64,000 bases of DNA from Bdellovibrionota bacterium (GCA_050950765.1 JBMNIF010000002.1:1-64000); one strand, 5' to 3'; shown: positions 5,551 to 50,540, counted from the first letter of the stretch. The notes: generated from the letters alone by a model not told the origin. Program-made: numbers and translations.

Positions 5551-5756
5551 AGTTTGGTGCCGGATTTTGTTTAGGTGCGCTAAGCTAAATTTGGCTGCAG
5601 CACTGGTGCCAGCCTTCACAGCACTGTGCTGGCTGGTTGGTTTGGTGCCACCCTTCAGAAACTCCCTCTCTGAGGGTTTGGAAATTTGGTGCCACCCTTT
5701 AGGTTTGGGTGGGTCTGCTGAATTTGGTGCCACCCTTCAGAAACTCCCTCTGAAAG
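5551..5756. repeat. GGGTGGCACCA-motif cluster (3 exact reverse-strand copies plus degenerate ones)
   Basis: TGGTGCCACCC at 5643, 5687 and 5725, between convergent genes. Confidence 0.85.
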
Positions 5757-5899
5757 TGAGGTAGGGTAGGATAGAGCGTCAGCATTAGTATATTCTCTCT
5801 CTTAAGTTTAGTGGTAAATAGGCATTATTTACCTTCCTTTCTAAAATTTACACGAAAGAGGTGTTTAAACGATTCAAAAAAATATAGAACGACAAGCAC

Positions 5900-7410: not shown

Positions 7411-7566
7411 TCACTGGTGCCACCCTTCAGGGACGACCGGACGGGCTGGAACTGCAAAACGGATCAGCTAGCTCTTCACGGGGATTAAAAAACTGGTGCC
7501 ACCCTTCTTTTCTTTTTCTAGCGCCATCCCCACACTAAAGGGTGGCACCAATCCCAATCTCCAAAC
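7411..7566. repeat. Motif cluster upstream of the HUH nuclease gene, including one 79-bp module
   Basis: TGGTGCCACCC at 7415 and 7494 (79 bp apart); GGGTGGCACCA at 7540. Confidence 0.85.
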
Positions 7567-7698
7567 TTTTTTCATTTTTACCCACAATAAAATCCTAACT
7601 CTAGCGACAATTAGGCGTTAGAATTTGGCAATCCTGCCAAACTAACCGGCAATTCTGCCAATTTATTGATTATTTTTATTTTTATCTGGAGTTGTCTT

Positions 7699-8667
7699 AT
7701 GAGAAATCGTCGAGATAGGAGAAATCCTAATAAAATGGTGGTACATGTCACCAATAGAACATTATCTGGCTTGCCATTTCTAGCACGCCTTTTTATGAAA
7801 TGGATCCTGTTAGGGATTATGGCACGTTGCCAAGAGCACCATCGTGTTAGAATTGCTCATTTTAATTGGATGAGTAACCACTTTCACATGATATTAGTTG
7901 GTGAAGGGAAGCACATCTCTTCATTTATGGGAGAGATGGAAAGTGCAGTTGCACGCGCTATTAAGAAACTAACGCCGCAATATAGGAGAAACGTTTGGGA
8001 TGGACGTTTTAAGGAGCAACGTTTGTTAACTCATAATGATGTTATCGATAAGATAGTCTATATTTATATAAATCCTGTAAAAGCAGGACTCGTTGCACAT
8101 GCTGATGATTGGGAAGGGTGTAGTAGTTTTAGAATGTATAAATCAGGTTCTTTAACAGTGCAGGGTAAGTATACCTCTTCTACTAATTTACGTAAGTTAC
8201 CGCAGAGACTTCATAAAATAAGCGATGCTATTTTATTAAAAATGCTTAATATGTTTCCGCACACTTGTCATGAGCTTAAGATTACCCCTGATGCTTGGAA
8301 GAATTGTTTTGAAGAATCAAAAAACCTTACGTCTGAAGAGATCTTTAAAACAATAATGACAGAGATTTCAAAAAGGGAAGAAGAGATTGCACTTGAAAGG
8401 AAGGGGCATTTTATGGGGATGCGTAAAGTGCAGCAGCAATCGATAAATATTGCGTATGTACCTAAGAAGAAGACGCGTACGCCGTATTTAATTTGTTGGA
8501 TTAAGGAGTTACGGATAAAAGCGATAGCAGAATATAAGGCTTTTTGTGAAGAGTGTAGAAAGGCTTGGAAGAAGTGGAAGCAAGGTGATATTTCAGCTAA
8601 GTTTGTTTATGGGGCATTTCGTCCGAGTATGCCTATTGTAGGTAGGCTTTGCGGGGTGGCGACCTGA
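7699..8667 (+). CDS. RAYT/TnpA_REP-like HUH (Y1) transposase/endonuclease with C-terminal extension
   Basis: VHVTNRT, HUH motif WMSNHFHMIL, VWDGRF, and catalytic-Tyr region YIYINPVKAGLV...DW..CSS, all typical of Y1_Tnp/RAYT proteins. ATG 7699 follows GGAG. Confidence 0.88.
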   Translation: MRNRRDRRNPNKMVVHVTNRTLSGLPFLARLFMKWILLGIMARCQEHHRVRIAHFNWMSNHFHMILVGEGKHISSFMGEMESAVARAIKKLTPQYRRNVWDGRFKEQRLLTHNDVIDKIVYIYINPVKAGLVAHADDWEGCSSFRMYKSGSLTVQGKYTSSTNLRKLPQRLHKISDAILLKMLNMFPHTCHELKITPDAWKNCFEESKNLTSEEIFKTIMTEISKREEEIALERKGHFMGMRKVQQQSINIAYVPKKKTRTPYLICWIKELRIKAIAEYKAFCEECRKAWKKWKQGDISAKFVYGAFRPSMPIVGRLCGVAT

Positions 8668-9318
8668 AAAAAGTAATGTAAAAAAGCTGCTTTTTTGACC
8701 CGTTAATAATATGAAATCTAAATTTCAACAGGGAAGATCTATCTAAAATCTGAAAATAGTCAATTAATTGTAAATTGTAGTATCAAATTTAAGGAAATTT
8801 AAGGTGAGTTAAGCTTGCTGACAGCAGCATAAGCAGAAAAAAGGCTGTCAGAAGAACAAAAACAGCAAAGCAGGTCGTACTGGTGGGTGGCACCAGTGAC
8901 TTATCCGTATTTAATTTGTTGGATTAAGGAGTTACGGATAAAGGCGATAGCAGAACATAAGGCTTTTTGTGAAGAGTGTAGAAAGGCTTGGAAGAAGTGG
9001 AGGCAAGGTGATATTTCAGCCAAGTTTGTTTATGGGGCATTTCGTCCGAGTATGCCTATTGTAGGTAGGCTTTGCGGGGTGGCGACCTGAAAAAAGTAAC
9101 GTAAAAAAGCTGCTTTTTTGACCCGATAATAATATGAAATCTAAATTTCAACGGGGAAGATCTATCTAAAATCTGAAAATAGTCAATTAATTGTAAATTG
9201 TAGTATCAAATTTAAGGAAATTTAAGGTGAGTTAAGCTTGCTGGCAGTAGCATAAGCAGAAAAAAGGCTGTCAGAAGAGCAAAAACAGCAAAGCAGGTCG
9301 TACTGGTGGGTGGCACCA
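8482..9318 (+). repeat. Tandem duplication (period 423 bp) of the nuclease 3' end plus downstream region
   Basis: 8482-8895 is repeated at 8905-9318 with about 10 substitutions; both copies end in GGGTGGCACCA. Confidence 0.95.
8905..9090 (+). pseudogene. Duplicated C-terminal fragment of the HUH nuclease
   Basis: PYLICWIKELR...RLCGVAT is near-identical to the C-terminus of 7699-8667 and lacks the N-terminal domain. Confidence 0.85.
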
Positions 9319-9744
9319 AGGACAAGAAGCAAGCAAGCAAGCAAGACTGGGATATTATCGGTCAATATGGTGGTGTGGTTTTCCACAACTTTTGCCATAT
9401 TTTGTCAAAATACGGTCTTATCGGTAAATTTAGCACAAAAGTTATCCACAGCAAATCACCAAGTTTATACTTGGACTTATCGGTTATTATATCAATAACT
9501 CTTACTGCTTTAAGCTAAAACACTACGTTACGTTAAAAACAATCCCTTTTGAGACCCTCTTTTGGCTTCCAGTGCAGAATGCAGATAAGTTTTTTTCTTT
9601 ATTTAAGCTTAAGAGACCTACTTTTAGCTAAATTTTTCAACCTTCTAACTAACATTCTGATATTATTAGGCTATTAAAACTTTTAAGGTTAAATACTTTG
9701 AATAAATTTCTTAATAAAAAAGGGTGGCACCAGACATAACATAA

Positions 9745-9942
9745 CTAAGCCATTACGTTTAAATTAGTCCCTTTTGATGGATCTTGAGCCATCTCAGGGG
9801 TCGATGAAAGGTTCGAAAATAAAATAGACATCACCTTTTCTAACTGTTCACCTTGACCTTTAATTGCTTTTACTTGAAATTGATTTGAAACCTCTGTCAT
9901 TTTTAGCTCAGAAGATAGTGCTGCAATAGAAGTAATATCCAT
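9745..9942 (-). CDS. Small YjfB-like putative motility protein (65 aa)
   Basis: MDITSIAALSSEL...DPSKGTNLNVMA resembles the YjfB family. GGAGG RBS upstream; a sigma28-like TTAG-N15-GTCGATTT lies ~9987-10013 on the minus strand. Confidence 0.6.
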   Translation of the reverse strand: MDITSIAALSSELKMTEVSNQFQVKAIKGQGEQLEKVMSILFSNLSSTPEMAQDPSKGTNLNVMA

Positions 9943-10526
9943 AAACTTCCTCCTTAAATTCCTTTCTTTTCTTTCTGATAAATAGAAAATCGACACCTTA
10001 GAGGATGAACTAAAGCAAAAAAGAGCATTGTGAAGCGCTTATAACACATTGATTATATTAAGTAAAATATCACTACAAATAAAACATTCAGATATATTAA
10101 ACACTTACAATATAATTCACTAGAATTCTAATTCTAGTGAATTATAGGGGTACCAAATCATTGTTGCCGGTCTTTTGGCTTAAAAAGAGGTAAAAGACAT
10201 TTTATACAGAATCAGCTTAATAACCTAAAAGCACATATGACCACACACCACAGCACCTCAAATATTTCCTAAGCACGAAAACAAAAATGTAGATTTTGAC
10301 CGTTTTTATTACCCATCTATTTTTTGATTTTACTTTTTAGAATAATTTGAAAAAAGTTGCGCCTGAAATTTATGTACGAGCCTAAGTAACAGCCAAGTTG
10401 TTATTTAGTAGTATAAATCTCTTTTTAAACAAACCTATCAGAAAATTTAATACCAGTTATAAGTTATGCCAGCGCATTGCTGCTGACTGTATTATACGTC
10501 ACGTGATATGCACCTGTTTAAAGGGA

Positions 10527-10980
10527 ATTTGGTGCCACCCTTCAGGGAAAAAGCTACTCAAGCATCTTATCAACTAGAGCACGATCTGGTGTACCCTACC
10601 TTGTTTCACAATATTACGTAAAAAATGGGTGGCACCAGTGATATCCGGATTTAAAACTGCAAAAGTTCAATAATATCAAAACATTAGCAAAAGATGGGGT
10701 TTGCTAATTAGAAGGGTAAAAACTCAATACTACCCTTCAGTAAAAGAGAGCAGCTGAATCTTAGAGATTAAATTTACATATCCTTCACAGTGAAAAACTA
10801 AAGAAGTATATTTCTAGCAGTATGCGTAAAAAAGATGGGTGGCACCAGAACAAACCATTACGTAAAAAATGGGTGGCATCAGAACAAACCAGAAACCAGA
10901 GCAAAGCTAGAGAAAAAAAATGGGTGGCACCAGTGACAGCCCCAGCAGACCAGCTTAAAAAATGGGTGGCACCAAGACAA
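10527..10980. repeat. GGGTGGCACCA-motif cluster
   Basis: Reverse copy at 10530; forward copies at 10627, 10837, 10922 and 10964; variant GGGTGGCATCA at 10871. Most forward copies follow an A-run plus T. Confidence 0.85.
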
Positions 10981-10989
10981 AGCCTATAA

Positions 10990-11027
10990 AAAGAGCCTCC
11001 AAGAATACTTCCTGGAGGCCTCTCTTA
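10990..11027 (-). terminator. Probable intrinsic terminator after the histone-like gene
   Basis: GCCTCCA...TGGAGGC stem with a T-run on the minus strand. Confidence 0.5.
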
Positions 11028-11050
11028 ACAACATTTAATTACAACCTGTT

Positions 11051-11599
11051 TTATTTAGCTGTAATCTTTCTCGTAATCTTTCTAACTATACGTCTAGTTG
11101 TAGCAGTTTTAGCAGCTACTTTCTTAGGAGCAGCTTTCTTAGCGACTGTCTTCTTAGCAGCGGCTTTCTTAGGAGCAGCTTTCTTGGCGACTGTCTTCTT
11201 AGCAGCGGCTTTCTTAGGAGCAGCTTTCTTGGCGACTGTCTTCTTAGCAGCTACTTTCTTAGTAGTAGTTTTCTTAGCGACTGTCTTCTTAGCAGCTACT
11301 TTCTTAGGAGCAGCTTTTTTAGCAACTGTCTTCTTAGCAGCTACTTTCTTAGTAGTAGTTTTTTTGGCGACTGTCTTCTTAGCAGCTACTTTCTTAGGAG
11401 CAGCTTTCTTGGCGACTGTCTTCTTAGCAGCGGCTTTCTTAGGAGCAGCTTTTTTGGCAACTGTCGTCTTCTTAGCAGCTACTTTCTTAGCAGTAGCTTT
11501 TTTAGCTGTAGCAGCTTTAGAAACTGTTGACTTCTTCATTGTCTTTCCACTTTTAGCGGCAACTCGCGTTGTCTTCGTAGAAGTTTTACTTATAGCCAT
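11051..11599 (-). CDS. Histone H1-like basic nucleoid protein (Hc2/BpH1-like pentapeptide repeats)
   Basis: More than 20 KK-x-x-x repeats (KKVAA, KKTVA, KKAAP); GGAG RBS upstream. Confidence 0.85.
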   Translation of the reverse strand: MAISKTSTKTTRVAAKSGKTMKKSTVSKAATAKKATAKKVAAKKTTVAKKAAPKKAAAKKTVAKKAAPKKVAAKKTVAKKTTTKKVAAKKTVAKKAAPKKVAAKKTVAKKTTTKKVAAKKTVAKKAAPKKAAAKKTVAKKAAPKKAAAKKTVAKKAAPKKVAAKTATTRRIVRKITRKITAK

Positions 11600-12362
11600 G
11601 ATTTTTTCTCCAAAAATTAGCGTAGTATAATAACCTCTATTTTACGCCTCTTTTTATTTATTAATCTGCGAATCCTCTCGCAGTTATTAAAAACATGAAA
11701 TGAACATAATACCACTTGCGTTCTTCTTCATGTAAAAAAAACAACACTGAGACTTTTTAATTTCTGTGACCGCATGCCACTGTCTCAGATATTTTCTTTA
11801 TCCTGCCATCACATCGCGATGTTTGCAAGATATTAACTTTGATGTTCGTTATAAAAAAAGTTTTCATAAATTTTGCGAACTCATCTTTTAAGATACACTC
11901 CAACGCCACCCCTTCGTGTTTATATTTTTAAAAATTACAAAAAACACCATCAATAAGACCATGCAAAAAAGCCTATAAAATAAGCTTCCCATTAAAGACA
12001 TTCAAAACAAGACGCTAAAAAAATGACACTAGGATCTGAAACAAGAACTAAAGAAACAGATGATGTTTTTCTTTGAGTGAGACCTTAAAAATTCCTTCCC
12101 TAAAAATTTTATCTTCAAAAAAAAATTACTCTCTCGACATTCCCTCCTCTATTACAATTATTACAATCTTCCTTTCCGATCTCAGGTTGGATTAAAAGAT
12201 CCTACAAAATTCTCTTTTGAGTAAGTAACTCTTCTTCCTATTTTTTACTTCATTAGATTGTAACCAAGAACGATCTTTTAACTTATCTAGATTCTCTTAA
12301 GGCTTCCAATTACAACACTAACATATTGTAATTATTGAATATATTATTCCTTAATGGTGATT

Positions 12363-12389
12363 TAATTAATTATTTAATTCTGCCGATAA
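12363..12389 (+). promoter_or_regulatory. Putative sigma28 (FliA)-type promoter
   Basis: TAAT-N15-GCCGATAA (exact -10 consensus at 12382-12389) upstream of an HDOD gene; a second TAAA-N16-ACCGATAT lies at 12407-12434. Confidence 0.45.
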
Positions 12390-12556
12390 CTATAGCGGTA
12401 GCGATGTAAAGGCATCAAAGAAGTGTACCGATATCTTTGGTAAGAGATCTTACTTTAAGAGATTATAAAACAACTGATGGCTACTAGACTGCAACCTGTA
12501 CTGAGTCAGGTCACAGGATCTAATGGTTTCATAAGAAAGAATTACTTAGTGACGAG

Positions 12557-13555
12557 ATGACAACAACTGATACTAAAACAAAAATCGCTTCGGCTAACGA
12601 GTCTTGGCTGATAGCTCGTCAGTATGTTGGACTGTATGGGGAGTTCGCCAGTTCATTCAGTACAACTATTCGTTGGTGTAATAACAAAAACAAGCAAGGA
12701 ATCGGAGAGTTTTCGCCTAATTTATTATGGCAACTGCGCAGATTATTACGGAGCGACACAGTCCAAGCGCCTCTATACTATGCTACTAAGGCATTTAAGA
12801 AAGAGGCTTTCGAGAGTACTGAGATTCATGACATTGAAGATGTCGCTGCACTGTATACACCACTAGAGTTAGCTTCAGTTCTAGCGATGTTGTATTTATA
12901 TCGTCGAACAAAAAAATTATCTGACCCAACAGAGTTTGAACTATTAGAAGCAAACCTTGTCGCTCGTTCAGAGATTAGCACCTTCGTTGGAATTAACATT
13001 CCTAAGATCGGTTTCAGTATCGGGCTTTTAACAGGAATCATTCGTCACATCGGATTAGCTGCCTTCCTTATGCATGACAAAAAGGGTTTTGCCGAATACC
13101 GTAGAATGCTAAAAATAGCAAATAAAATCATTGACTTAGAGTATGAATTCGCTCATTGGGGCTGTTCTCATATCGAGATAGGAACAGCGCTTTTAATAAA
13201 TATCGGTTTCTCGAGAGAGTTCGCAAGATCATTCTCTTGCGGACTTTCAGCAACATCACCAGAGGAAGAAGAGGTGCTAAACAATCAAAGTTATGCCGTA
13301 AGGTGTGCAGATCTTTGGACCAATGCATACATGAGCACTGGAGAGCCTCCACGTACTACTTACAGGATGGGGTTCTATCCTTCAGATCAGGCGTTAGCAG
13401 TTTTAAATGAAGCGGTGCATAAAACCACCTCCTCCGGAGGGCAATTTTCATGGTTTAAGAAATGTGCAGATGACTTAACTCCAGAAGCTGCACCTGAATT
13501 GGTTAACGGTAAGCACTCTTCAACCGAAGATCTCGCAAAACAAGAACAGGAATAA
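12557..13555 (+). CDS. HDOD-like domain protein
   Basis: GLLTGIIRHIG and E...WGCSHIEIG..LL resemble HDOD motifs (AGLLHDIG; E...G.DH..IG). Confidence 0.6.
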   Translation: MTTTDTKTKIASANESWLIARQYVGLYGEFASSFSTTIRWCNNKNKQGIGEFSPNLLWQLRRLLRSDTVQAPLYYATKAFKKEAFESTEIHDIEDVAALYTPLELASVLAMLYLYRRTKKLSDPTEFELLEANLVARSEISTFVGINIPKIGFSIGLLTGIIRHIGLAAFLMHDKKGFAEYRRMLKIANKIIDLEYEFAHWGCSHIEIGTALLINIGFSREFARSFSCGLSATSPEEEEVLNNQSYAVRCADLWTNAYMSTGEPPRTTYRMGFYPSDQALAVLNEAVHKTTSSGGQFSWFKKCADDLTPEAAPELVNGKHSSTEDLAKQEQE

Positions 13556-14064
13556 GCATACTACCGAAGTCAAATAAAAACACTTCCTCCCTGTTTTATA
13601 CAACTATATAGTTTTTTATATCTAGGTCTTAAATAAGATTCATCCAATGCCTAAACATCACCAGAGGAAGAAGAGGTGCTAAATAATCAAAGTTATGCCG
13701 TGAGGTGTGCAGATCTTTGGACCAATGCATACATGAGCACTGGAGAGCCTCCACGTACTACTTACAGGATGGGGTTCTATCCTTCAGATCAGGCGTTAGC
13801 AGTTTTAAATGAAGCGGTGTATAAAACCACCTCCTCCGGAGGGCAATTTTCATGGTTTAAGAAATGTGCAGATGACTTAACTCCAGAAGCTGCACCTGAA
13901 TTAGTTAACGGCAAGCACTCTTCAACTGAAGATCTCGCAAAACAAGAACAGGAATAAGCATACTACCGAAGTCAAATAAAAACACTTCCTCCCTGTTTTA
14001 TACAACTATATAGTTTTTTATATCTAGGTCTTAAATAAGATTCATCCAATGCCTAAACATCACC
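13252..14064 (+). repeat. 402-bp tandem duplication of the HDOD gene 3' end, bounded by AACATCACC microhomology
   Basis: AACATCACC at 13252, 13654 and 14056; the copies differ at 6 positions. Confidence 0.95.
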
Positions 14065-14249
14065 GGTAGAAATAAGCCTCACTAAGCTTTAACTAGAACT
14101 CCACCTTTAGAGCTCTTCCCTTAGCTAGGAAGAGAGCTTGGCATAAATAAGGTTGAAGAGTCTTTCTAAGAAAGCTCCTTCGTTAGACAGGTTCAGTCAC
14201 TTACTATGTAAGCCTTAAAAAAAGGGGCGCAGTGTATAAAAGTCTAGCG

Positions 14250-16601
14250 CTAATTAGCCGCGTTAAGTTTCCTTATCAGTGTCATGCAATCTTTGGTAAA
14301 TACTTTTTTGGAAGTCCTCTTAATATTTACCTTCTTGGATTGTTTTACGCGCAACCTATTGCTTTTGATAGCAGTACTACCAACAGTTATATTTTTATAC
14401 CTTCTGACAATTCTCGGAAGATCGATAACTTTTAATGTCGTGCCATTTTCAAGAGAACCAGAAAATTCCGGTCCACATCTCCGTCCGCCCAAAATTAAGT
14501 TTAATGGAACTTCTCCGCTACCAGTCCCGATAAGAGAAATGTTCATCAAGCCGCCTGGGATAGCTTTTCTACTAACAGTACCGTCCTTCCTAACACCTGA
14601 AATCTTAATTGAAGAAAGTGTCATCGGAGTTTGATTCTCTCTCTCTTTATTTTTATCGTCTTCCACAACGGTCTTTACTTGGCAGTTCGGAGTAAATTGC
14701 AATGTCATCCCATCATATAAAGATGCGTTGTTATAAGCGTAGGTATAAGCACTATCACTCGCAGATCCCCGTACTCCAATAGTAGCGGAGGTTGCAACTA
14801 AAGAGGCTACTTCCGGCGTAGCAAAGGCATAAGATGTTTCTATTAAACCCGAAGGATAGAGTGTAACATTCACTGTTACATCGTCTTTATAAATGCTGGC
14901 GTAAGAACGAGCGTGCCAAGTGATGCTCTGACTGTTGGCATCTCCTTTTACCCTAATGCCATGACCTCTTTGCGGAAAAATTAGGTCTGTATGTAAAACG
15001 GCGATCGAATTTAGAGGCGCATCTGACCCGTTCCTATAATCAGCTGAGCTTTGATTTTGTAAATAAATTACACCGTTTGGAGAGATGGTAATATTCTTGT
15101 ATGACACACCATAAAACGGGAATTCAAATCCAAGTGTAACCTCAGGAAATTCTAATTCATCAACGTTAGAGATAATGTCTTCCTCTAGCGAAACATAAGA
15201 AGGAGCCTGCCTGCCCTCTGTGGCGCTATATGAACAAACGGTCTGATTACCAACTTCTGGCTCTACGTTGCCATTAATCAACCTTCCCAAATTTAAAACC
15301 TTACCACTTTCAACAAGACCATCAAGTTTGGTGTTGCTTGTGCCAGTTTTTTTCAGATGTGCTGTCAGTTCAGTCGGTGTTATCTTCGGATAAAGAGATT
15401 TTAACAGGGCAACTGAACCTGTCACAAATGGAGTCGCCATAGAAGTTCCAGAAAGACTTTTATATGTTCCATTAAGGTAAGTACTAACGATACTAACACC
15501 TGGTGCTGCAATAGTTACCGTTTTTGCGCCAAAATTAGAAAAATCTGCTAAACTTCCACTTCTACCGATAGCACCAACAGAGATAACATTGGCTAAGTTG
15601 TAGCCAGCGGGATAAGTTGGTTTTACGTCGTTGTTGTTACTTTCATTACCTGCTGCTGCAACAAATGTAATCCCTTCGGCTAGTGCTTTTTCTATGGCGT
15701 TATACATGACTTGAGAGAACCCCCCACCGCCCCAAGAATTATTCATGGCAACGATATTAAATCCTCGCTTCTTCATGGAAACGACATAATTAATGGCCTC
15801 AACTGCCCCTGCCAAGCTACCGGATCCTTTTGCGTTAAGAAATCTACATCCTAGCAACTTTATATTCCAATTTATTCCACTAATACCGATACCGTTATTA
15901 CCACTAGCACCGATAACTCCCGCTACATGTGTGCCGTGACCATTGGCATCCATCGGATCTCCTTTTGCGCCGATTGTTGACATGCCATAAACATCATCAA
16001 TATAGCCGTTACCATCATCATCTATACCGTTACCTGGAATTTCTCCGTTATTAACCCAGATATTAGCGGCGAGATCCGGATGAGTATAATCGATTCCTGT
16101 ATCAATTACGGCCACAATCATGTCTTGAGAGCCCGTCGTGACATTCCAAGCTGTCTCTGTATCGATACCTAAATTCTTACTAAGTCCCCACTGTTCATTA
16201 AACTTGCTATCGTTAGGACGTGCAGCTATTGAGATCTGATAATTTGGAGAACAAGATTTTACAATTCCATTAGCTACGAGTTCTTCACACAGTTGTAAAT
16301 CTGCAGCATTAACCTCTCTTATGTTTGATTTGGAAGTATTTGAGGCGTTATAGCTGTGAGCACCTTTTAAGGTTACTAAACTCGATCCTTCTCCGAGAGG
16401 CTTTAGCTCTTGTAAGCCAAAAGAACTAAGTGTCGCTGCCTCTCCTTGCTGTAAAGCGAAAGGACCTTTTTCGGGTGGTTCAATAACGAACTCTCCTTCA
16501 TAAACGTAATCAGTAGCAGCATTAGCGTAAAAAGGAATAAAGACGGCAAGTAATAACACCGTCCATCGAGGGAATTTACTCAACAAGCAAGACATCAGCA
16601 A
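14250..16601 (-). CDS. Secreted S8 subtilisin-like serine protease with C-terminal beta domains
   Basis: Catalytic motifs VAVIDTG, HGTHVAG and SGTSMATP; signal peptide; NIDO-like FEFPFYG...ISPNG. Confidence 0.92.
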   Translation of the reverse strand: MLMSCLLSKFPRWTVLLLAVFIPFYANAATDYVYEGEFVIEPPEKGPFALQQGEAATLSSFGLQELKPLGEGSSLVTLKGAHSYNASNTSKSNIREVNAADLQLCEELVANGIVKSCSPNYQISIAARPNDSKFNEQWGLSKNLGIDTETAWNVTTGSQDMIVAVIDTGIDYTHPDLAANIWVNNGEIPGNGIDDDGNGYIDDVYGMSTIGAKGDPMDANGHGTHVAGVIGASGNNGIGISGINWNIKLLGCRFLNAKGSGSLAGAVEAINYVVSMKKRGFNIVAMNNSWGGGGFSQVMYNAIEKALAEGITFVAAAGNESNNNDVKPTYPAGYNLANVISVGAIGRSGSLADFSNFGAKTVTIAAPGVSIVSTYLNGTYKSLSGTSMATPFVTGSVALLKSLYPKITPTELTAHLKKTGTSNTKLDGLVESGKVLNLGRLINGNVEPEVGNQTVCSYSATEGRQAPSYVSLEEDIISNVDELEFPEVTLGFEFPFYGVSYKNITISPNGVIYLQNQSSADYRNGSDAPLNSIAVLHTDLIFPQRGHGIRVKGDANSQSITWHARSYASIYKDDVTVNVTLYPSGLIETSYAFATPEVASLVATSATIGVRGSASDSAYTYAYNNASLYDGMTLQFTPNCQVKTVVEDDKNKERENQTPMTLSSIKISGVRKDGTVSRKAIPGGLMNISLIGTGSGEVPLNLILGGRRCGPEFSGSLENGTTLKVIDLPRIVRRYKNITVGSTAIKSNRLRVKQSKKVNIKRTSKKVFTKDCMTLIRKLNAAN

Positions 16602-16935
16602 TCCTCCCTAGATCAACATTGTGATCCATCCCACACACGAGATAGAAAGTCGTTCAATCCAAGGGATCGCATTACGATCTGCCGCTAAATTCTTTTAGGA
16701 AAAATTATTTTTTTTGCTATTGGAGTAATAATGTTCAAAATTGTACAAAAATGGGCGTTTTTTAAATGAGAAATCACTCTTTATAAGAAAAGAGTCTACT
16801 ATGGCTTCAATTTTTACGAGTTACTAAAAGGGCAATTCCTCGCTTCTCCCCCACTCTTTTATTCATCTTTGTATTGCAGTGAGGTACTTTTTAATCTCTG
16901 CACTCTATTTTTTGTGTTGTTATAAGTGTTGATAT

Positions 16936-17388
16936 TTAACGTTCCAGTAATGTCAACTCCAAAACACCGCTACTGATGAAACGAGCTAAATTCTTGGCGT
17001 TTCTTTCTGCTGCTTCAAGAGTTGCGCTAGGATGATTTCGATAGCAATCAACAGAATAGGTTGAATCCCCATTTGGCGAGATCCTTCTCCTGACTTCATA
17101 GATATACTTTGAATTACTTCCTCTGTTACTGATTAACTTAGCGGTATTGATACTTAATTGTGCGTCAGGGATATATTGTCGAAAAAACAACCCTGCTCTC
17201 TGCCAAGCGGCAAAATCTTTTTCTAGGGAAAGTTGAAATGTAGTTGGCGTCTGGTCAATCTCTGCCAAAGTCTGTTCTTTTTGCGAGATTACTTCCATTT
17301 GTAGGTCATTAGCAGAATTGGCGCTACAAGAAGAGAGTCCTAAAACGGTTAAGATAAGAACAAACTTAATATTTTTTATGTTTATCAT
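16936..17388 (-). CDS. Hypothetical lipoprotein
   Basis: Signal peptide ending in lipobox LSSC. Confidence 0.6.
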   Translation of the reverse strand: MINIKNIKFVLILTVLGLSSCSANSANDLQMEVISQKEQTLAEIDQTPTTFQLSLEKDFAAWQRAGLFFRQYIPDAQLSINTAKLISNRGSNSKYIYEVRRRISPNGDSTYSVDCYRNHPSATLEAAERNAKNLARFISSGVLELTLLER

Positions 17389-17597
17389 AATCGAATCCTT
17401 AAATCCGCAGCACAAGGTTTCTTTCCGCCTTCAATACACCAATACCTTTAAACAGGAAAGGGGGACAATAAGAACGGTGTTTGCTCCTTACATTCTTACT
17501 ACGTAGTTTTATAGCTAATGCCGCTACAAGAAAAGGCCGATATTAAAGAGTAGACAGTGCAGTTTGTTAGTTGTTTCTATTTTTTATCGGCGTTCTC

Positions 17598-18443
17598 ATG
17601 ATAATTCGACTACTTTTTATAGTATTATCATTTTATATCTTCGCATTTTCGGAAGTCTCAGCTGATGATACTGTCAGGGCACGTTTTACCCCTAATGCTA
17701 CACGTTACAAACACACCTTAACAGTTGCTCCGTTAAAACTTGCTAATGGAAGTAGTTTAACACTTGTCTCTCCTGCTCATTTAACAGGTCTAACCAAAAA
17801 GCTCTCTATCTTGCTTGAGCGGACACATCAGCAGTATACGAAAATTTTTGGAGAGATCCCGACGCTGACCACTTCAATTCGACTAATTGATGAAAGAGAA
17901 TTCTTTAAAGTAACAGCGGCACCTGAATGGACAAATGCACTTTTCTATAAAAATGAGATCATTATTCCCATCCCTGAAAATGTTGCTGAGATAGACCTTG
18001 AAAATATTTCCCGCGCGATAAAGCATGAATATACTCACGCTGTGGTGCACGCCTTATCTGCCGGACGGTGCCCTGGTTGGCTCGATGAGGGGCTGGCGCA
18101 ATGGTCTGAGGGACCTGAAAATCCGGCTTTACAATTAGCTTTGCTTGAACTCTTAAAAAAGAATCGTTACATCCCTTTTGATAAATTACAGGGAGGTTTT
18201 ACCAAATTGGATGTCGAATTAGTCCCTGCTGCTTATGCACAATCTCTTTACGTGACAAAAGAGCTTCTGACTCAACACGGATTTTCAGCTTTAAGACGAT
18301 TCTTCAAAGTGTTACGTCACGGCTATAGCAAAGACGCTGCATTTATTGCGGGGTTTAATATGAATGAAGGCTTAATAGAAAACATCGCCATTCGCAGAAT
18401 CAAAGCACGCTTAAATCAACGTCAAATCTCTGCTGCACAGTAA
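17598..18443 (+). CDS. Peptidase MA-like zincin protein
   Basis: HEYTH plus PGWLDEGLA and AYAQS; signal peptide. Confidence 0.8.
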   Translation: MIIRLLFIVLSFYIFAFSEVSADDTVRARFTPNATRYKHTLTVAPLKLANGSSLTLVSPAHLTGLTKKLSILLERTHQQYTKIFGEIPTLTTSIRLIDEREFFKVTAAPEWTNALFYKNEIIIPIPENVAEIDLENISRAIKHEYTHAVVHALSAGRCPGWLDEGLAQWSEGPENPALQLALLELLKKNRYIPFDKLQGGFTKLDVELVPAAYAQSLYVTKELLTQHGFSALRRFFKVLRHGYSKDAAFIAGFNMNEGLIENIAIRRIKARLNQRQISAAQ

Positions 18444-18504
18444 ATCAGAGATCATCATCCGGATCTTCCCTAGCTTTTTACCCCCATAGAGGATCGTCAC
18501 TGAA

Positions 18505-19675
18505 GGGTGGCACCAGATTTTTAACCCCCGTCAAGATCTAGCTAGCTCGTTTCGCTGTATCAGCCCGTCCTAGCGTCCCTGAAGGGTGGCACCAGTGATA
18601 AAGCCAACTAATCCGCCCAAACTGGTGGGTGGCACCAAATTCATCACCTGCTTGCTAGAAGCTTTTTGCTTAAAAAGCCTATTAGAATCAAACTATTATG
18701 ACATAACTAGTTGTTTAGGAGCCTCTAGCTTCAGCTTTCAATAAAGAAGGGTGGCACCAGTGATAACCCCGCCCTGCTGTCCCTGAAGGGTGGCACCAGA
18801 TTTTTAACCCCCGTCAAGATCTAGCTAGCTCGTTTCGCTGTATCAGCCCGTCCTAGCGTCCCTGAAGGGTGGCACCAGTGATAAAGCCAACTAATCCGCC
18901 CAAACTGGTGGGTGGCACCAAATTCATCCCAAATTCATCACCTGCTTACTGAGAAGCTTTTTGCTTAAAAAGTCTATTAAAATCAAACTATTATGACATA
19001 ACTAGTTGTTTAGGAGCCTCTAGCTTCAGCCTTCAATAAAGAAGGGTGGCACCAGATTTTTAACCCCCGTCAAGATCTAGCTAGCTCGTTTCGCTGTATC
19101 AGCCCGTCCTAGCGTCCCTGAAGGGTGGCACCAGTGATAAAGCCAACTAATCCGCCCAAACTGGTGGGTGGCACCAAATTCATCACCTGCTTGCTGAGAG
19201 CTTTTTGCTTAAAAAGTCTATTAAAATCAAATTATTATGACGTAACTAGCTGTTTAAAAACCTCCAACTTCACCAACTTCAGCCTTCAATAAAGAAGGGT
19301 GGCACCAGATTTTTACCAGCTTCAGCCTTCAATAAAAAAGGGTGGCACCAAATTTTCCAAATTTTCAGCCTCTTTTTAGTTGCAGCCCGTTCCCGTCAAG
19401 ACCCAACCAATTCGCTTTTCAGTTCAGCCCGTTCAGCCGTCCCTGAAGGGTGGCACCAAATTCATCACCTCCGTCAAGACCCAACCAATTCGCTTTTTAG
19501 TTGCAACCCGTCCAGCCGTCCCTGAAGGGTGGCACCAGTTTTTTAACCCCCGTCCAGATCTAGCTAGCTCGTTTCGCTGTATCAGCCCGCCCAATCGTCC
19601 CTGAAGGGTGGCACCAGTTTTTTAACACTAAATTTTAACCCCAACTTCAGCCTTCAATAAAAAAGGGTGGCACCA
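18505..19675 (+). repeat. Large head-to-tail array of 16 GGGTGGCACCA motifs with mosaic modules
   Basis: Motif starts at 18505, 18584, 18627, 18749, 18788, 18867, 18910, 19044, 19123, 19166, 19297, 19340, 19448, 19527, 19606 and 19665; lies between convergent genes. Confidence 0.95.
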
Positions 19676-37604: not shown

Positions 37605-37812
37605 TAAAAATTTGGTGCCACCCTTCAGGGACAGCAGGACGGGCTGATACTACAAAGCGAAGTCAGCTAGATCTTTACGAGGGTTAAAAATTTGGTGCCA
37701 CCCACTAGGGACAGCAGGACGGGCTGCAATGCAGAGAGGAAAATTTGGTGCCACCCACCAGTGCTAAAAGACTCTAAAACTACGATAGATAATAATATCA
37801 AGATGTTAGCAA
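37605..37812. repeat. Motif array, left part (interrupted by the IS)
   Basis: TGGTGCCACCC at 37613, 37693 and 37746. Confidence 0.9.
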
Positions 37813-37904
37813 CCTAAATTCCGCAATTTTTATCTTTTCTCCATTCCAGAAATAAGCCACCGTATTTTTTATTGATATTTTAGTTAGTTATATATTTTTC
37901 TATA

Positions 37905-37932
37905 TTGACATTTCCTGTTTGTATGGTATGAT
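37905..37932 (+). promoter_or_regulatory. Transposase sigma70 promoter
   Basis: TTGACA-N16-TATGAT with an extended TG. Confidence 0.65.
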
Positions 37933-37960
37933 TGCCCTATACATATTAGGGAGGTTTTTT

Positions 37961-39574
37961 ATGAAAAAAATAACTAAAAAAGTTGACTTACCAGATAGGC
38001 AAATTGCTCGTAAGAAAAACAAAAATGGGACTACTTATATCTATTACAGGATGAACTTTCGTCGTGAAAACGGAGAGCCTACGTTTGATGAAATAGGTAT
38101 AGGGAAGCTAGATGAAAGCGGTAAGAAATTAATTCCTAATAGAAATTACTATGATTTGTTTCCAGATGATTCTAATAGATATGTTATTAGCAATAAATCT
38201 TTTGGTCTTACTTATGTTTTAAATAAGATTGTAAAAGATTTAAGGTTAGACAAGACATTGCTTTCAATTTTTGGAAATGACACATACGAGATTTTAACTT
38301 TAGCGTTTTATATTCTAGCAAATGGAAATGTAGTATCACATGCTTCAAGTTGGATAGATGATAGTGTCTTACCATATGAAATTTCTGAATTAACAAGTCA
38401 AAAAATAAGTCGTCTTTTTGAACGTATTGACTACGAGAAAAGACTTAATTTTTTTAAGAAATGGACGAAGCGATATTTAGCTCAAGAATGTTGGTATTAT
38501 GACGTAACTTCCATATCTTCTTATAGTAAAAAAATAAGCATATTGGAGTTTGGCTATAATAGGGATATGGATAAATTGCCGCAAATAAATATAGGTATGT
38601 GCTACGGCTCTACAACGAAGCTTCCTTTATTCTATCAAGTTTATAATGGCAGCATTACAGATAAGACATATTTTAGTTTTCTTTTAAGAGACTTTCCATT
38701 TATTAGTCTTAATAATCGTATTAACCTTGTTACGGATCAAGGTTTTGTGACGCAAGATAATTTAGCGGAAGTAGCAAATGAAGAAGGGCAAAAGTTTGGA
38801 CTACTTTGTCCTTTGCCACTATATTGGAATGACGCTAAAAGAATATTAGAAAATCACACTGCACTTATTAAGCAAGATGCTAATTATATAAAAGGAACCT
38901 CTACTTTTGGTTGTTCTGTAATAGATACTGTTATGGGACAACCTGTAAAGATTTATGTTTATTACAATATGGGAAAGGCGCCATATGAGATAGTTCAATT
39001 TTACGAGAAAATTTCTAGAATGGAAGAAGAGTTAGAAGAACTGAAAAAATTAAAATACTCTTTGCTGGATCGTAAAAAATATAGGAAATATTTTGATATT
39101 AAAATAAATGAAGATGGTTTCACTTATGAAAAAAAATCAGAAGCTATAGATGAATACTTGAGAAATTGTGGCTTCTTAATTTTGATTGGTATTGGTTGTG
39201 ATTCAAATCCGAGTGAAGCACTTTTTCGTTATCGTCAAAAAGATGTAATTGAAAAACAATTTTTCCAGCTAAAAAATGAAATTGATTTTAGAAGACTTAA
39301 AACACATAATCTTCAAACCACAGAAGGAAAACTTTTTGTTGGATTTTTAGCTCTTATACTTAGAAGTTATATTCTTAATTTACTTAAAAATGATACAAGG
39401 CAAAAAAAGTTTAATATACCTGATGTCATTAAAGAGCTTCAAAAAATTAAAGTTATAGAAACTAAAAATGGCAGTAAATTAATGGTTCCGTTAACAAAAA
39501 AACAAAAGGATATTTTGAAAATTTTCAATATTGAAGAAGATGACTTTCTAAAAAGTATTTTTAAGAAAAAGTAA
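37961..39574 (+). CDS. IS1634-family DDE transposase
   Basis: YYDVTSISSY, GYNRD...LPQIN, VTDQGF and YRQKDVIEKQFFQLK; GGAGG RBS before ATG 37961. Confidence 0.92.
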   Translation: MKKITKKVDLPDRQIARKKNKNGTTYIYYRMNFRRENGEPTFDEIGIGKLDESGKKLIPNRNYYDLFPDDSNRYVISNKSFGLTYVLNKIVKDLRLDKTLLSIFGNDTYEILTLAFYILANGNVVSHASSWIDDSVLPYEISELTSQKISRLFERIDYEKRLNFFKKWTKRYLAQECWYYDVTSISSYSKKISILEFGYNRDMDKLPQINIGMCYGSTTKLPLFYQVYNGSITDKTYFSFLLRDFPFISLNNRINLVTDQGFVTQDNLAEVANEEGQKFGLLCPLPLYWNDAKRILENHTALIKQDANYIKGTSTFGCSVIDTVMGQPVKIYVYYNMGKAPYEIVQFYEKISRMEEELEELKKLKYSLLDRKKYRKYFDIKINEDGFTYEKKSEAIDEYLRNCGFLILIGIGCDSNPSEALFRYRQKDVIEKQFFQLKNEIDFRRLKTHNLQTTEGKLFVGFLALILRSYILNLLKNDTRQKKFNIPDVIKELQKIKVIETKNGSKLMVPLTKKQKDILKIFNIEEDDFLKSIFKKK

Positions 39575-39640
39575 GATTATACCGCTCGAAAGCTACCTTT
39601 AAAAACACGTTTGTATGGTATAATTTCGCGGGAATTCAGG

Positions 39641-40112
39641 TTAGCAAAAGCTTCGGGCTTGGCGAATTTGGTGCCACCCACCAGTAAGACGGGATCTGGC
39701 AGATTTGGCAGGGCTTGGATCTGGTGCCACCCACTAGAGACAGCAGAGCGGGCGCAACTTGCAGATCAAATCGGTTAGATCTCTACGGAATTTACTACCA
39801 CTCGCTAGGGACAATTGAGCGGGCTGATACGGCAAAATAAATCAGCTAGATCTATACGGAGGAGGTTAAATTTTGGTGCCACCCACCAGTGCTAAAAGAC
39901 TCTAAAATTACGATAGCTAATAATATCAAGATGTTAGCAAAAGCTTCGGGCTTGGCGAATTTGGTGCCACCCACTAGGGACAGCAGGACGGGCTGCAATG
40001 CAGAGAGGGATCAGCTAGATCTCTACGAGGGTTAAAAATTTGGTGCCACCCACTAGAGACAATTGAGCGGGCTGATACGGCAAAATAAATCAGCTAGATC
40101 TATACGGAGGAA
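39641..40112. repeat. Motif array, right part
   Basis: TGGTGCCACCC at 39669, 39722, 39874, 39962 and 40041, with 88- and 79-bp modules. Confidence 0.9.
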
Positions 40113-50084: not shown

Positions 50085-50540
50085 CTTTTTTAACCTCCGT
50101 AGAAATCTAGCCGATCCCGTTCTGCTGTTGCAGCCAGCCCTGCTGTCCCTGAAGGGTGGCACCAAATTTTTGACCTTCGTGAAAACCTAACCGATTCGTT
50201 TTGTAGTGACAGCCCGTTCAATCGTCCCTGAAGGGTGGCACCAAATTCGCCAAATGCTAAGCTTTTGCTAACGTCTTGATATTATTGGCTATCCTAATTT
50301 CAGAGTCTTGTAGCACTGGTGGGTGGCACCAAATTTCCGCTGCTGTCCCTGAAGGGTGGCACCAAATTTTCTGGTGGGTGGCACCAAATTTTCCCTCGTG
50401 AAAACCTAACCAACTTGCTTTTTAATATCAGCCCGCTCAATCGTCCCTAGCGAGTGGTAGTAAATTCCGTAGAAATCTAGCCGATCCCGTTCTGCAGTTG
50501 CAGCCACCCCAATCATCCCTAAAGGGTGATGGTAAATTTC
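50085..50540 (+). repeat. Motif array between the paralogous membrane-protein genes
   Basis: GGGTGGCACCA at 50154, 50233, 50321, 50354 and 50376; degenerate copies at ~50452 and ~50524; 79- and 88-bp modules. Confidence 0.9.

Follow-up and report, generated by a model that had tools for sequence, protein, structure and literature searches.

HUH enzymes cut single-stranded DNA and remain bound to the 5′ phosphate. In rolling-circle Rep initiators and relaxases, the nick leaves a 5′-phosphotyrosine, displacement synthesis is primed by the 3′-OH, and resealing of the strand is carried out by the enzyme. Here we describe an element of a Bdellovibrionota bacterium (GCA_050950765.1) that carries an HUH Y1 transposase gene, and the high-copy 11-nt motif GGGTGGCACCA that flanks this gene. 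The genome (G000) has a size of 2.64 Mb, a GC content of 40%, and five contigs. The window analyzed is the first 64 kb of contig C2 (JBMNIF010000002.1:1-64000). Short tandem duplications, here called scars, start at one bond of the motif, A^CCA, where ^ marks the proposed cut. The closest described class is TIRtron/TIRYT (Di Nocera et al. 2013), and REPtrons and IS200/IS605 come next.

TIRtrons are reported as RAYT-like genes between terminal inverted repeats (TIRs), which can form dispersed families (PMC3733652). As far as that report describes them, the present locus resembles them in that its HUH/Y gene is longer than classical RAYTs and has inverted repeats other than GTAG hairpins on its two sides. 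As in the same report, this repeat is also dispersed as singles, dimers, or clusters. For TnpAREP of the REPtrons, the DNA on the 5′ side of the cut is reported to be probably released, after which the phosphotyrosine can be resolved by any 3′-OH; in the cleavage-and-strand-transfer (CST) assay, an unrelated attacking oligonucleotide resolves the 5′-phosphotyrosine (PMC3479197, PMC8266576). Like a REPtron gene, the present gene has inverted copies of an abundant extragenic repeat on both sides (7494–7504 on the minus strand, 8885–8895 on the plus strand), and this holds for all six copies. The motif includes GTGG where REPs carry their GT[AG]G tag.

Position of the Micro-Duplications

The initial annotation, made from the sequence alone, had placed three exact duplications at motif copies 18910, 19340, and 7540 and had read A^CCA as a candidate nick site. 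All three duplications were found at these places (Table 1). GGGTGGCA at 18910–18917 directly precedes the CCAAATTCATC duplication, which cannot be shifted, and the sister units at 18635 and 19174 have a single copy, as had been stated. GGGTGGCA at 19340–19347 precedes the CCAAATTTT duplication, which can be shifted right by one base; a single unit is present at 19673. The CCAATC-CCAATC sequence is identical in all six element copies, and contigs of runs X1 and X2 span 7524–8820 with no indel listed there. Logan contigs (four runs) break at the arrays and are hence uninformative as to whether 18918 or 19348 varies. The organism is present in digester and bioreactor metagenomes, in 20 runs of 14 studies. 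The looser stutters noted earlier at 5643rc, 5687rc, and 39722rc (reverse complement) and at 10871, 10922, 19297, and 50233 were all present.

The micro-duplications anchored at A^CCA were confirmed beyond the window. For the 1095 GGGTGGCA anchors of the whole genome, exact tandem duplications with a period of 5–30 were recorded, and their leftmost start was measured from the first C of CCA. Offset 0, the first C itself, had 28 duplication instances, which represent 22 distinct events. The six CCAATC instances were scored as one event because they are part of a six-copy element. The other 127 offsets (−70 to +59) had a mean of 1.28 events and a maximum of 6, which gave a Poisson P of 6 × 10−20 for offset 0. 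When the 45 nt downstream of CCA were shuffled, 0.79 ± 0.83 events were found at offset 0 (maximum 4 in 200 shuffles). The histogram of duplication starts was thus enriched at A^CCA against both other offsets and shuffles, as the initial annotation had predicted.

Flanking microhomology was absent in 16 of the 22 offset-0 events, which argues against slippage. The offset-0 periods ranged from 6 to 30 with a mode of 9–11, whereas periods of 5–6 dominate elsewhere. Among the exact duplications with a period of 8–30 in the genome, 24 of 246 have a phase starting right after GGGTGGCA; by our own arithmetic, these anchors occupy about 0.02% of strand positions. Five events were found at offset −1, four of them shiftable to 0, and three at offset +1. 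Cuts one base to either side are excluded for unshiftable events because the units would then differ by one base. Starts with CCA were also enriched 6–16 nt past the cut (0.03–0.10 per position vs. about 0.02 further out).

When the arrays are cut after GGGTGGCA, they fall into heterogeneous modules of 22–423 nt, each of which starts with CCA and finishes with GGGTGGCA. Only five deletion-like events start at the cut, and three of these join GGCA to the internal CCAGATCTAGC, which normally lies 19 nt into the module. Joints were located with 14-mers that are common after the motif, by finding where homology to the motif breaks when the full motif is missing. With a motif at most 45 nt upstream, the break was exactly before CCA in 15 cases and 1, 2, 4, 5, or 6 bases off in 0–1 cases each. 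In several of these 15 joints, the head fragment of one module type is fused to the full head of another. Such heterologous joints suggest a rule beyond self-duplication, in which any 3′ end may be joined to 5′-CCA.

Scars in Related Genomes

Of 41 genomes of the order, 37 encode full-length homologues of the transposase (25–34% identity), and many of these have more than one copy. High counts of the exact motif are limited to G000 (943 copies), G019 (37), G025 (16), and G040 (9). Scars in the three relatives were counted in 11 regions, picked by motif or homologue position, with 30 motif copies. Seven of the 30 copies had an exact 6–15-nt duplication at offset 0, for example CCATAGTTTTTATAG, CCAATCTTGTCATTG, CCAAATTATC, and CCAGGTCTG, each present twice. 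All other offsets together gave seven rows, two of which are the same events seen from a neighboring anchor. Long stutters restarting at CCA are common in these regions, with five CCAGACTAG restarts in L134 as an example. G019 belongs to another family and has a genome of 1.8 Mb; its 37 exact motif copies also show scars and stutters (e.g., L133–L140).

The homologue is flanked by inverted motif copies in G025, whereas that of G040 is preceded by an inverted motif at a distance of about 140 nt. In two further genomes the homologue abuts a local stutter array with junctions related to those seen here. The array of G015 (L010 1640–1850) has eleven units of 15–25 nt bounded by GGCA/CCAG junctions. 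That of G030 (L009 2520–2700) has CCAGTAGTAG restarts after GGCCCCCT, with junctions of the form ...CCCT/CCAG. Both array motifs are confined to these loci in their assemblies (11 and 3 matches, respectively).

A 16-mer scan of genome contigs gave, among the matches listed (97 stretches), only single matches in unrelated genomes. A metagenome scan for a sister strain with the neighboring gene gave one distant locus of 31% identity. The literature searched yielded no description of the motif or of cut-site scars, and the motif-string matches listed were of the primer type.

The Gene-Bearing Element and Its Transposase

The Pfam Y1_Tnp search of the genome gave six loci, one of them at 7795–8010. 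The match to Y1_Tnp (PF01797) passes the cut-off (E = 7.7 × 10−7, 29.7 bits vs. a cut-off of 23). The NCBIfam model REP_Tyr_transpos (NF047646) gave E = 1.2 × 10−18 and 67.3 bits, under its curated cut-off of 80, and the IS200 model NF033573 was not passed (18.2 bits vs. 55). The closest solved relative is E. coli TnpAREP (4ER8), by sequence (E = 5 × 10−5) and by fold (Foldseek E = 1.9 × 10−6, TM 0.70); ISDra2, IS200, and IS608 follow in the Foldseek order. H61, H63, Y121, Y123, N125, and P126 were invariant in nine of nine homologues, and H61-F-H63 forms the HUH motif. Y121 is aligned to Y115 of 4ER8, which is named as catalytic in PMC3479197. About 180 C-terminal residues are conserved in the family and had no clear match among the listed PDB fold matches, which cover the N-terminal HUH domain only.

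The genome contains six full gene copies of 98–100% identity and one fragment, and each full copy lies between inverted motif copies. It is the only multi-copy HUH gene of the genome. The other multi-copy genes are five transposase families (10, 9, 7, 5, and 5 copies), all DDE_Tnp_1 or rve, and the 2.6-Mb genome is unusually rich in mobile DNA.

The six element copies are near-identical from about 7491 to about 8900 in the alignment. The element starts with an inverted motif, which a 35-nt spacer separates from a forward motif. The unit comes next; it opens with the CCAATC-CCAATC scar, carries the gene, and ends with ...ACTGGTGGGTGGCA, after which CCAG follows. In its "CCA ... GGGTGGCA" format, the gene unit 7548–8892 thus matches the small modules. 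Arrays extend outward from it on both sides. A 13-bp inverted repeat (ACTGGTGCCACCC/GGGTGGCACCAGT) is present at 7491–7504 and 8885–8897. The region 7480–7580 can form a hairpin with a 13-bp stem (−16.5 kcal/mol, z = −4.2) that was matched by 0 of 200 shuffles. The possible 6–7-bp hairpin across the proposed cut at 8885–8895 is weak (−9 kcal/mol, z = −1.87; 11 of 200 shuffles were as good). The truncated unit that follows encodes residues 257–333 with 84% identity (match at 8863–9087).

Two side observations concern the same element. In run X7, one contig joins 7553 to 7637 and skips 83 nt (7554–7636); its right side restarts with CCA (CCAAAC). An exact 10-nt duplication of AAATTTAAGG is located at 8785–8804 (also 9208–9227) in the 3′ untranslated part, with no adjacent motif, and is shared by the other copies.

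Motif Family and Arrays

The 943 exact copies of GGGTGGCACCA form 123 clusters. Of these, 104 contain more than one copy, and in 87 of the 104 all copies point the same way. The window contains 45 motif matches (≤1 mismatch) vs. 0.28 expected, and 45 was reached in 0 of 100 shuffles. The extended consensus, built on 967 instances of GGGTGGCACC, is cCTGAA/GGT-GGGTGGCACCA-A/G-A-t-t. Open reading frames of ≥150 aa hold only 4 of the 943 copies, yet they span 0.77 of the genome. The most frequent motif spacings are 79, 53, and 88 nt. A tRNA-like or RNA reading of ...GGCACCA was rejected, as ARAGORN and Rfam gave nothing within the arrays.

Single-base motif variants were considered as boundary markers and rejected, as the sequence to the left and right of most of them is diverse; the +2 variant/deletion head alone stays together with its downstream module. 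The commonest variant is C>T at the second C of CCA (GGGTGGCACTA), with 35 copies and diverse flanks on both sides (e.g., 10871–10881 in the window); every other variant listed has 4–17 copies. This C>T excess may reflect a mutation hot spot at the base beside the proposed cut. At 11 places in G000, an inverted motif runs straight into CACCAG (TTGGTGCCACC/CACCAGTAAAAGTGGGTGTCC), for example at C1:67149(−), C3:422421(+), and C5:86094(+). This composite looks like a separate small repeat family sharing the motif.

Features of the Window

The coordinates of the features are collected in Table 1. The insertion inside the array 37613–40051 (window 37928–39574) encodes a transposase with a DDE_Tnp_1 domain, and we take it to be of the IS1634 family. 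Footprints of such DDE insertion sequences were rejected as the scar source, since this copy lies 10–16 nt inside a unit, off the cut. In runs X7 and X12, single Logan contigs link 5659 to 5894 and skip 5660–5893, so the array at about 5600–5735 differs in those strains.

Table 1. Coordinates of the motif copies, scars, gene unit, and arrays in the window, with upstream-ending duplications elsewhere in the genome in the last line.
Feature	Position	Strand	Basis or remark
Inverted motif copy upstream of the transposase gene, left partner of the inverted repeat, pairs with 7540–7550	7494–7504	−	Exact match; kept in all six element copies
Motif copy GGGTGGCACCA; proposed cut between 7547 (A) and 7548 (C)	7540–7550	+	
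Micro-duplication CCAATC-CCAATC (7548–7553, 7554–7559), opening 12 bases of the gene unit	7548–7559	+	After GGGTGGCA 7540–7547
1345-bp unit, six in genome, CCA ... ACTGGTGGGTGGCA	7548–8892	+	Six-copy alignment
HUH Y1 tyrosine transposase gene (RAYT/TIRYT-like), 322 aa from ATG	7699–8667	+	Open frame from TTG at 7666
Motif copy at right end of the gene unit	8885–8895	+	CTGGTG-GGTGG-CACCAG
5′-truncated second unit copy, 423 nt: head CCAGTGAC and last ~415 nt, ending GGGTGGCA	8893–9315	+	
Head-to-tail array, 16 motif copies between modules of 39–134 nt	18505–19675	+	Motif scan and module splitting
Micro-duplication CCAAATTCATC ×2, starts at proposed cut	18918–18939	+	Units 18918–18928, 18929–18939; period 11, run 11; not shiftable
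Internal duplication CCAACTTCA ×2, starts CCA, no adjacent motif	19264–19281	+	Module splitting, genome-wide duplication list
Micro-duplication CCAAATTTT ×2, starts at proposed cut	19348–19365	+	Units 19348–19356, 19357–19365; period 9, run 10
Array with stutters CCAAA-CCAA-CCAG-CCAG and CCAAATTT-CCAAACCC after motif copies	5604–5735	−	
Array, CCAG restarts after copies at 10871 and 10922	10627–10974	+	
Array interrupted by insertion sequence; stutter at 39724 CCAGAT-CCAAGCCCTG-CCAAATCTG-CCAGATCCCG	37613–40051	−	
Array with 33- and 22-nt mini-modules (head and tail only) and CCAAATTCG-CCAAATGC	50154–50386	+	
13–18-nt duplications ending just upstream of motif	G000 C2:424402, C5:27449(−), C2:255639; C2:978679, C2:1204812, C3:212056		

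Proposed Mechanism

We propose that GGGTGGCACCA is probably the repeat recognized by the six-copy HUH transposase. From the sequence, we infer a nick on the motif strand, the enzyme that makes it, and a short synthesis that follows. The enzyme would nick between A and C (GGGTGGCA^CCA) and stay on the 5′ phosphate of CCA. A polymerase would extend the free 3′-OH by about 6–30 nt and displace the enzyme-capped strand. The new 3′-OH would then attack the phosphotyrosine and reseal the strand, which would now have two copies of the stretch starting at the cut. Repeated rounds would give the stutters restarting at CCA, and joining to the enzyme-linked 5′ end of a neighboring site would fuse a head fragment to a different head.

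A nick with short extension and rejoining would leave duplications with the left edge at one bond, a free right edge, and no microhomology. It would also produce more duplications than deletions, repeated restarts, and joints to the CCA end of a neighbor. The resolution by any 3′-OH described for TnpAREP is a biochemical precedent for the proposed scar reaction. More tentatively, the same reaction may also build the arrays, although we find this doubtful as yet; nick-primed local displacement synthesis would be resealed early, leaving a 6–30-nt scar, or at the next regenerated site, leaving a tandem copy of one or more modules.

If this is true, REP-type repeats would spread and grow through nick-primed copy-and-rejoin, in effect a rolling-circle replication that stays local and aborts, and not by cut-and-paste transposition. 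Genomes would then keep a base-resolution in vivo record of the cut site. In four genomes, natural sequence alone points to one phosphodiester bond; to our knowledge, cut sites are known for only three such enzymes, all in vitro. Reading the scars may be a computational route to the cut sites of uncharacterized HUH elements. The suggested reaction of nick, short synthesis, and rejoining to a new 3′-OH resembles the published CST assay, and the motif oligonucleotide (CTGAAGGGTGGCACCAAATT) with the 322-aa protein would be a directly testable substrate. One of the densest repeat families seen in a small genome is here tied to a Y1 family whose large C-terminal domain marks it as a type that is reported not to be repeat-associated.

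The claim of the initial annotation that the scars record the cleavage site is favored by the starts that pile up at A^CCA here and in three relatives. Its assignment to an HUH enzyme gains from the six intact RAYT/TIRYT-like genes between inverted motifs and from the homologues likewise linked in G025 and G040. The interpretation is thus supported in part, and several observations weigh against HUH nicking at A^CCA. One motif-proximal duplication at −2/−1 and one at +1 cannot be shifted to 0. Eight duplications have their ends between −9 and −5 relative to the cut, most of them with a period of 13–18, and a mirror image of the site on the opposite strand is seen in the −5 class alone. This class ends at GGG/TGGCA (two cases, and a third at a variant motif) and mirrors the site exactly (TGCCA^CCC), which fits occasional cutting of the other strand of the palindrome. 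Three that end at G/GGTGGCA match the site of neither strand. Orphan heads with no motif nearby show no CCA spike; counted in bases upstream of the head core, where 3 is exactly before CCA, the break was at 1, 2, 3, and 5 bases in 17, 19, 6, and 11 cases.

Other points on the same side concern the enzyme and the DNA structure. In G019, which has scars, neither Y1_Tnp nor a nine-sequence profile gave a match (E ≤ 1 for the profile; assembly 92% complete, 20 contigs). At least two contigs of G019 have arrays close to an end, so a Y1 gene there may be unassembled. Co-occurrence of protein and motif was tried as evidence and is uninformative, because the homologue is present in 37 of the 41 relatives. 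A hairpin-based REP reading was rejected, as the folding of the 79-nt modules did not surpass that of shuffled sequence for either strand (z = +0.7 and +1.5). Two thirds of the motif copies have a TGAA tail without a substantial hairpin, and a CTGGTG/CACCAG stem is possible in only about a third (tail TGGT). Relative to the replication strand, motif copies were distributed 535:408, and there was no clear bias in arrays (76:67) or scars (19:10, p = 0.14). For the characterized RAYTs, the reported cuts fall within CT or CA (for E. coli, C^T) and not at A^C (PMC3479197, PMC8266576); cleavage by this 322-aa protein is a prediction. A Marinomonas GTGG guide variant is reported to lead to CA and CC sites (PMC3479197, PMC8266576). 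As the motif here has GTGG-CA^CC, the Marinomonas analogy is suggestive but not exact.

Alternative Explanations

A tight protein or structure at the palindromic core GGTGGCACC may stall replication, and template switching would then leave duplications edged by its footprint, with no nick. As read from the sequence, the core is indeed a 9-bp palindrome with an odd center, and duplications lie on both sides of it (starts at 0, ends −9 to −5). However, template switching needs microhomology, which most offset-0 events lack, and the right edge is sharp to one bond (22 events at 0 vs. 3 at +1 and 5 at −1, most shiftable to 0). Stalling also leaves the fusions between a head fragment and another head without an explanation, and we consider it unlikely.

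We also give a low probability to another enzyme, such as a motif-specific nickase or a palindrome recombinase, with a real break-and-join point at which the RAYT-like gene is merely a landing module. The G019 scars, the mirror-image scars on the other strand, and the near-ubiquity of the protein family in the order regardless of motif count would suit such an enzyme. However, the motif is linked to no further candidate, as the remaining multi-copy genes are DDE or rve. The gene is linked with inverted motif copies in three lineages with only 27–30% identity between them. From HUH chemistry, a plain nick would have no protected 5′ end and no stored energy for resealing without a ligase.

Similarly doubtful is that the scars are remnants of whole modules, where a module was inserted or duplicated and most of the first copy was deleted up to the module boundary. 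The mini-modules of 22 and 33 nt with head and tail only, the 5′-truncated gene unit at 8893–9315, and the heterologous head fragments ahead of full heads are what such deletion may leave. However, two events per scar are required, and most scars are homologous (22 distinct duplications) and short. A joint exactly at A^CCA would still be needed, so the cut site would not be removed.

Chance, ordinary slippage, shared ancestry of the copies, or an assembly artefact was tested and rejected by the duplication counts and is highly improbable: although the array copies are related and the six CCAATC cases are one event, there were 22 distinct unit sequences vs. 0.79 in shuffles, most without microhomology, the scar occurs in three other assemblies, and the CCAATC duplication is found in independent contigs of two runs.

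Nicking and rejoining by the HUH transposase is, in our view, the more probable reading of the scars and is compared below with the known systems.

Comparison with Known Systems

The locus has the features of a TIRtron in its 13-bp inverted repeat ends and its protein of 322 aa vs. 165 aa for 4ER8. It differs in abundance, with 943 motif copies in 2.64 Mb vs. the moderately abundant families reported (PMC3733652). The repeats are mostly in head-to-tail arrays, and there are six near-identical gene copies. GGGTGGCACC is off the GGGGWSAS consensus of some TIRs; other TIRs are also reported as unrelated to that consensus, so it is not required (PMC3733652). The part of that report available to us describes no scars.

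The REPtron of E. coli (YafM/TnpAREP, 4ER8) offers the closest solved structure and sequence family (PMC3479197, PMC8266576, PMC2817692). Unlike a REPtron, the present locus apparently has no real REP hairpin, and its arrays are direct and not of alternating orientation. The putative cut is A^C, vs. C^T or C^A. The protein has a C-terminal domain of about 180 aa, and its score is under the NCBIfam cut-off. REP-associated RAYTs are described as typically single-copy and domesticated (PMC5581495), whereas six gene copies are present here.

The Y1 HUH fold is shared with IS200/IS605 (IS608, ISDra2, and miniature derivatives). As in that family, the units in the filled sites appear to have fixed ends and no target duplication. 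If the target is GGGTGGCA and the unit also finishes with GGGTGGCA, a unit would offer a target for tandem insertion at its end. The unit boundaries are ambiguous because every unit is bounded by the same 11-nt motif. In contrast to TnpA of IS200/IS605 (about 130–150 aa), the protein is twice as long at 322 aa and does not pass the IS200 model, and subterminal hairpins are weak or absent.

Quentin et al. 2018 describe TnpAY1 subclasses with a large C-terminal domain, which are reported, in the part of the article available, as not REP-associated (PMC6006769). The present protein likewise has a Y1 core followed by a large conserved C-terminal domain, whereas its gene is tied to a 943-copy motif. 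By analogy with rolling-circle Rep proteins and relaxases, the proposed reaction would differ in one step. Synthesis would abort after 6–30 nt and be resealed locally, so that a tandem duplication would form and no circle would be released.

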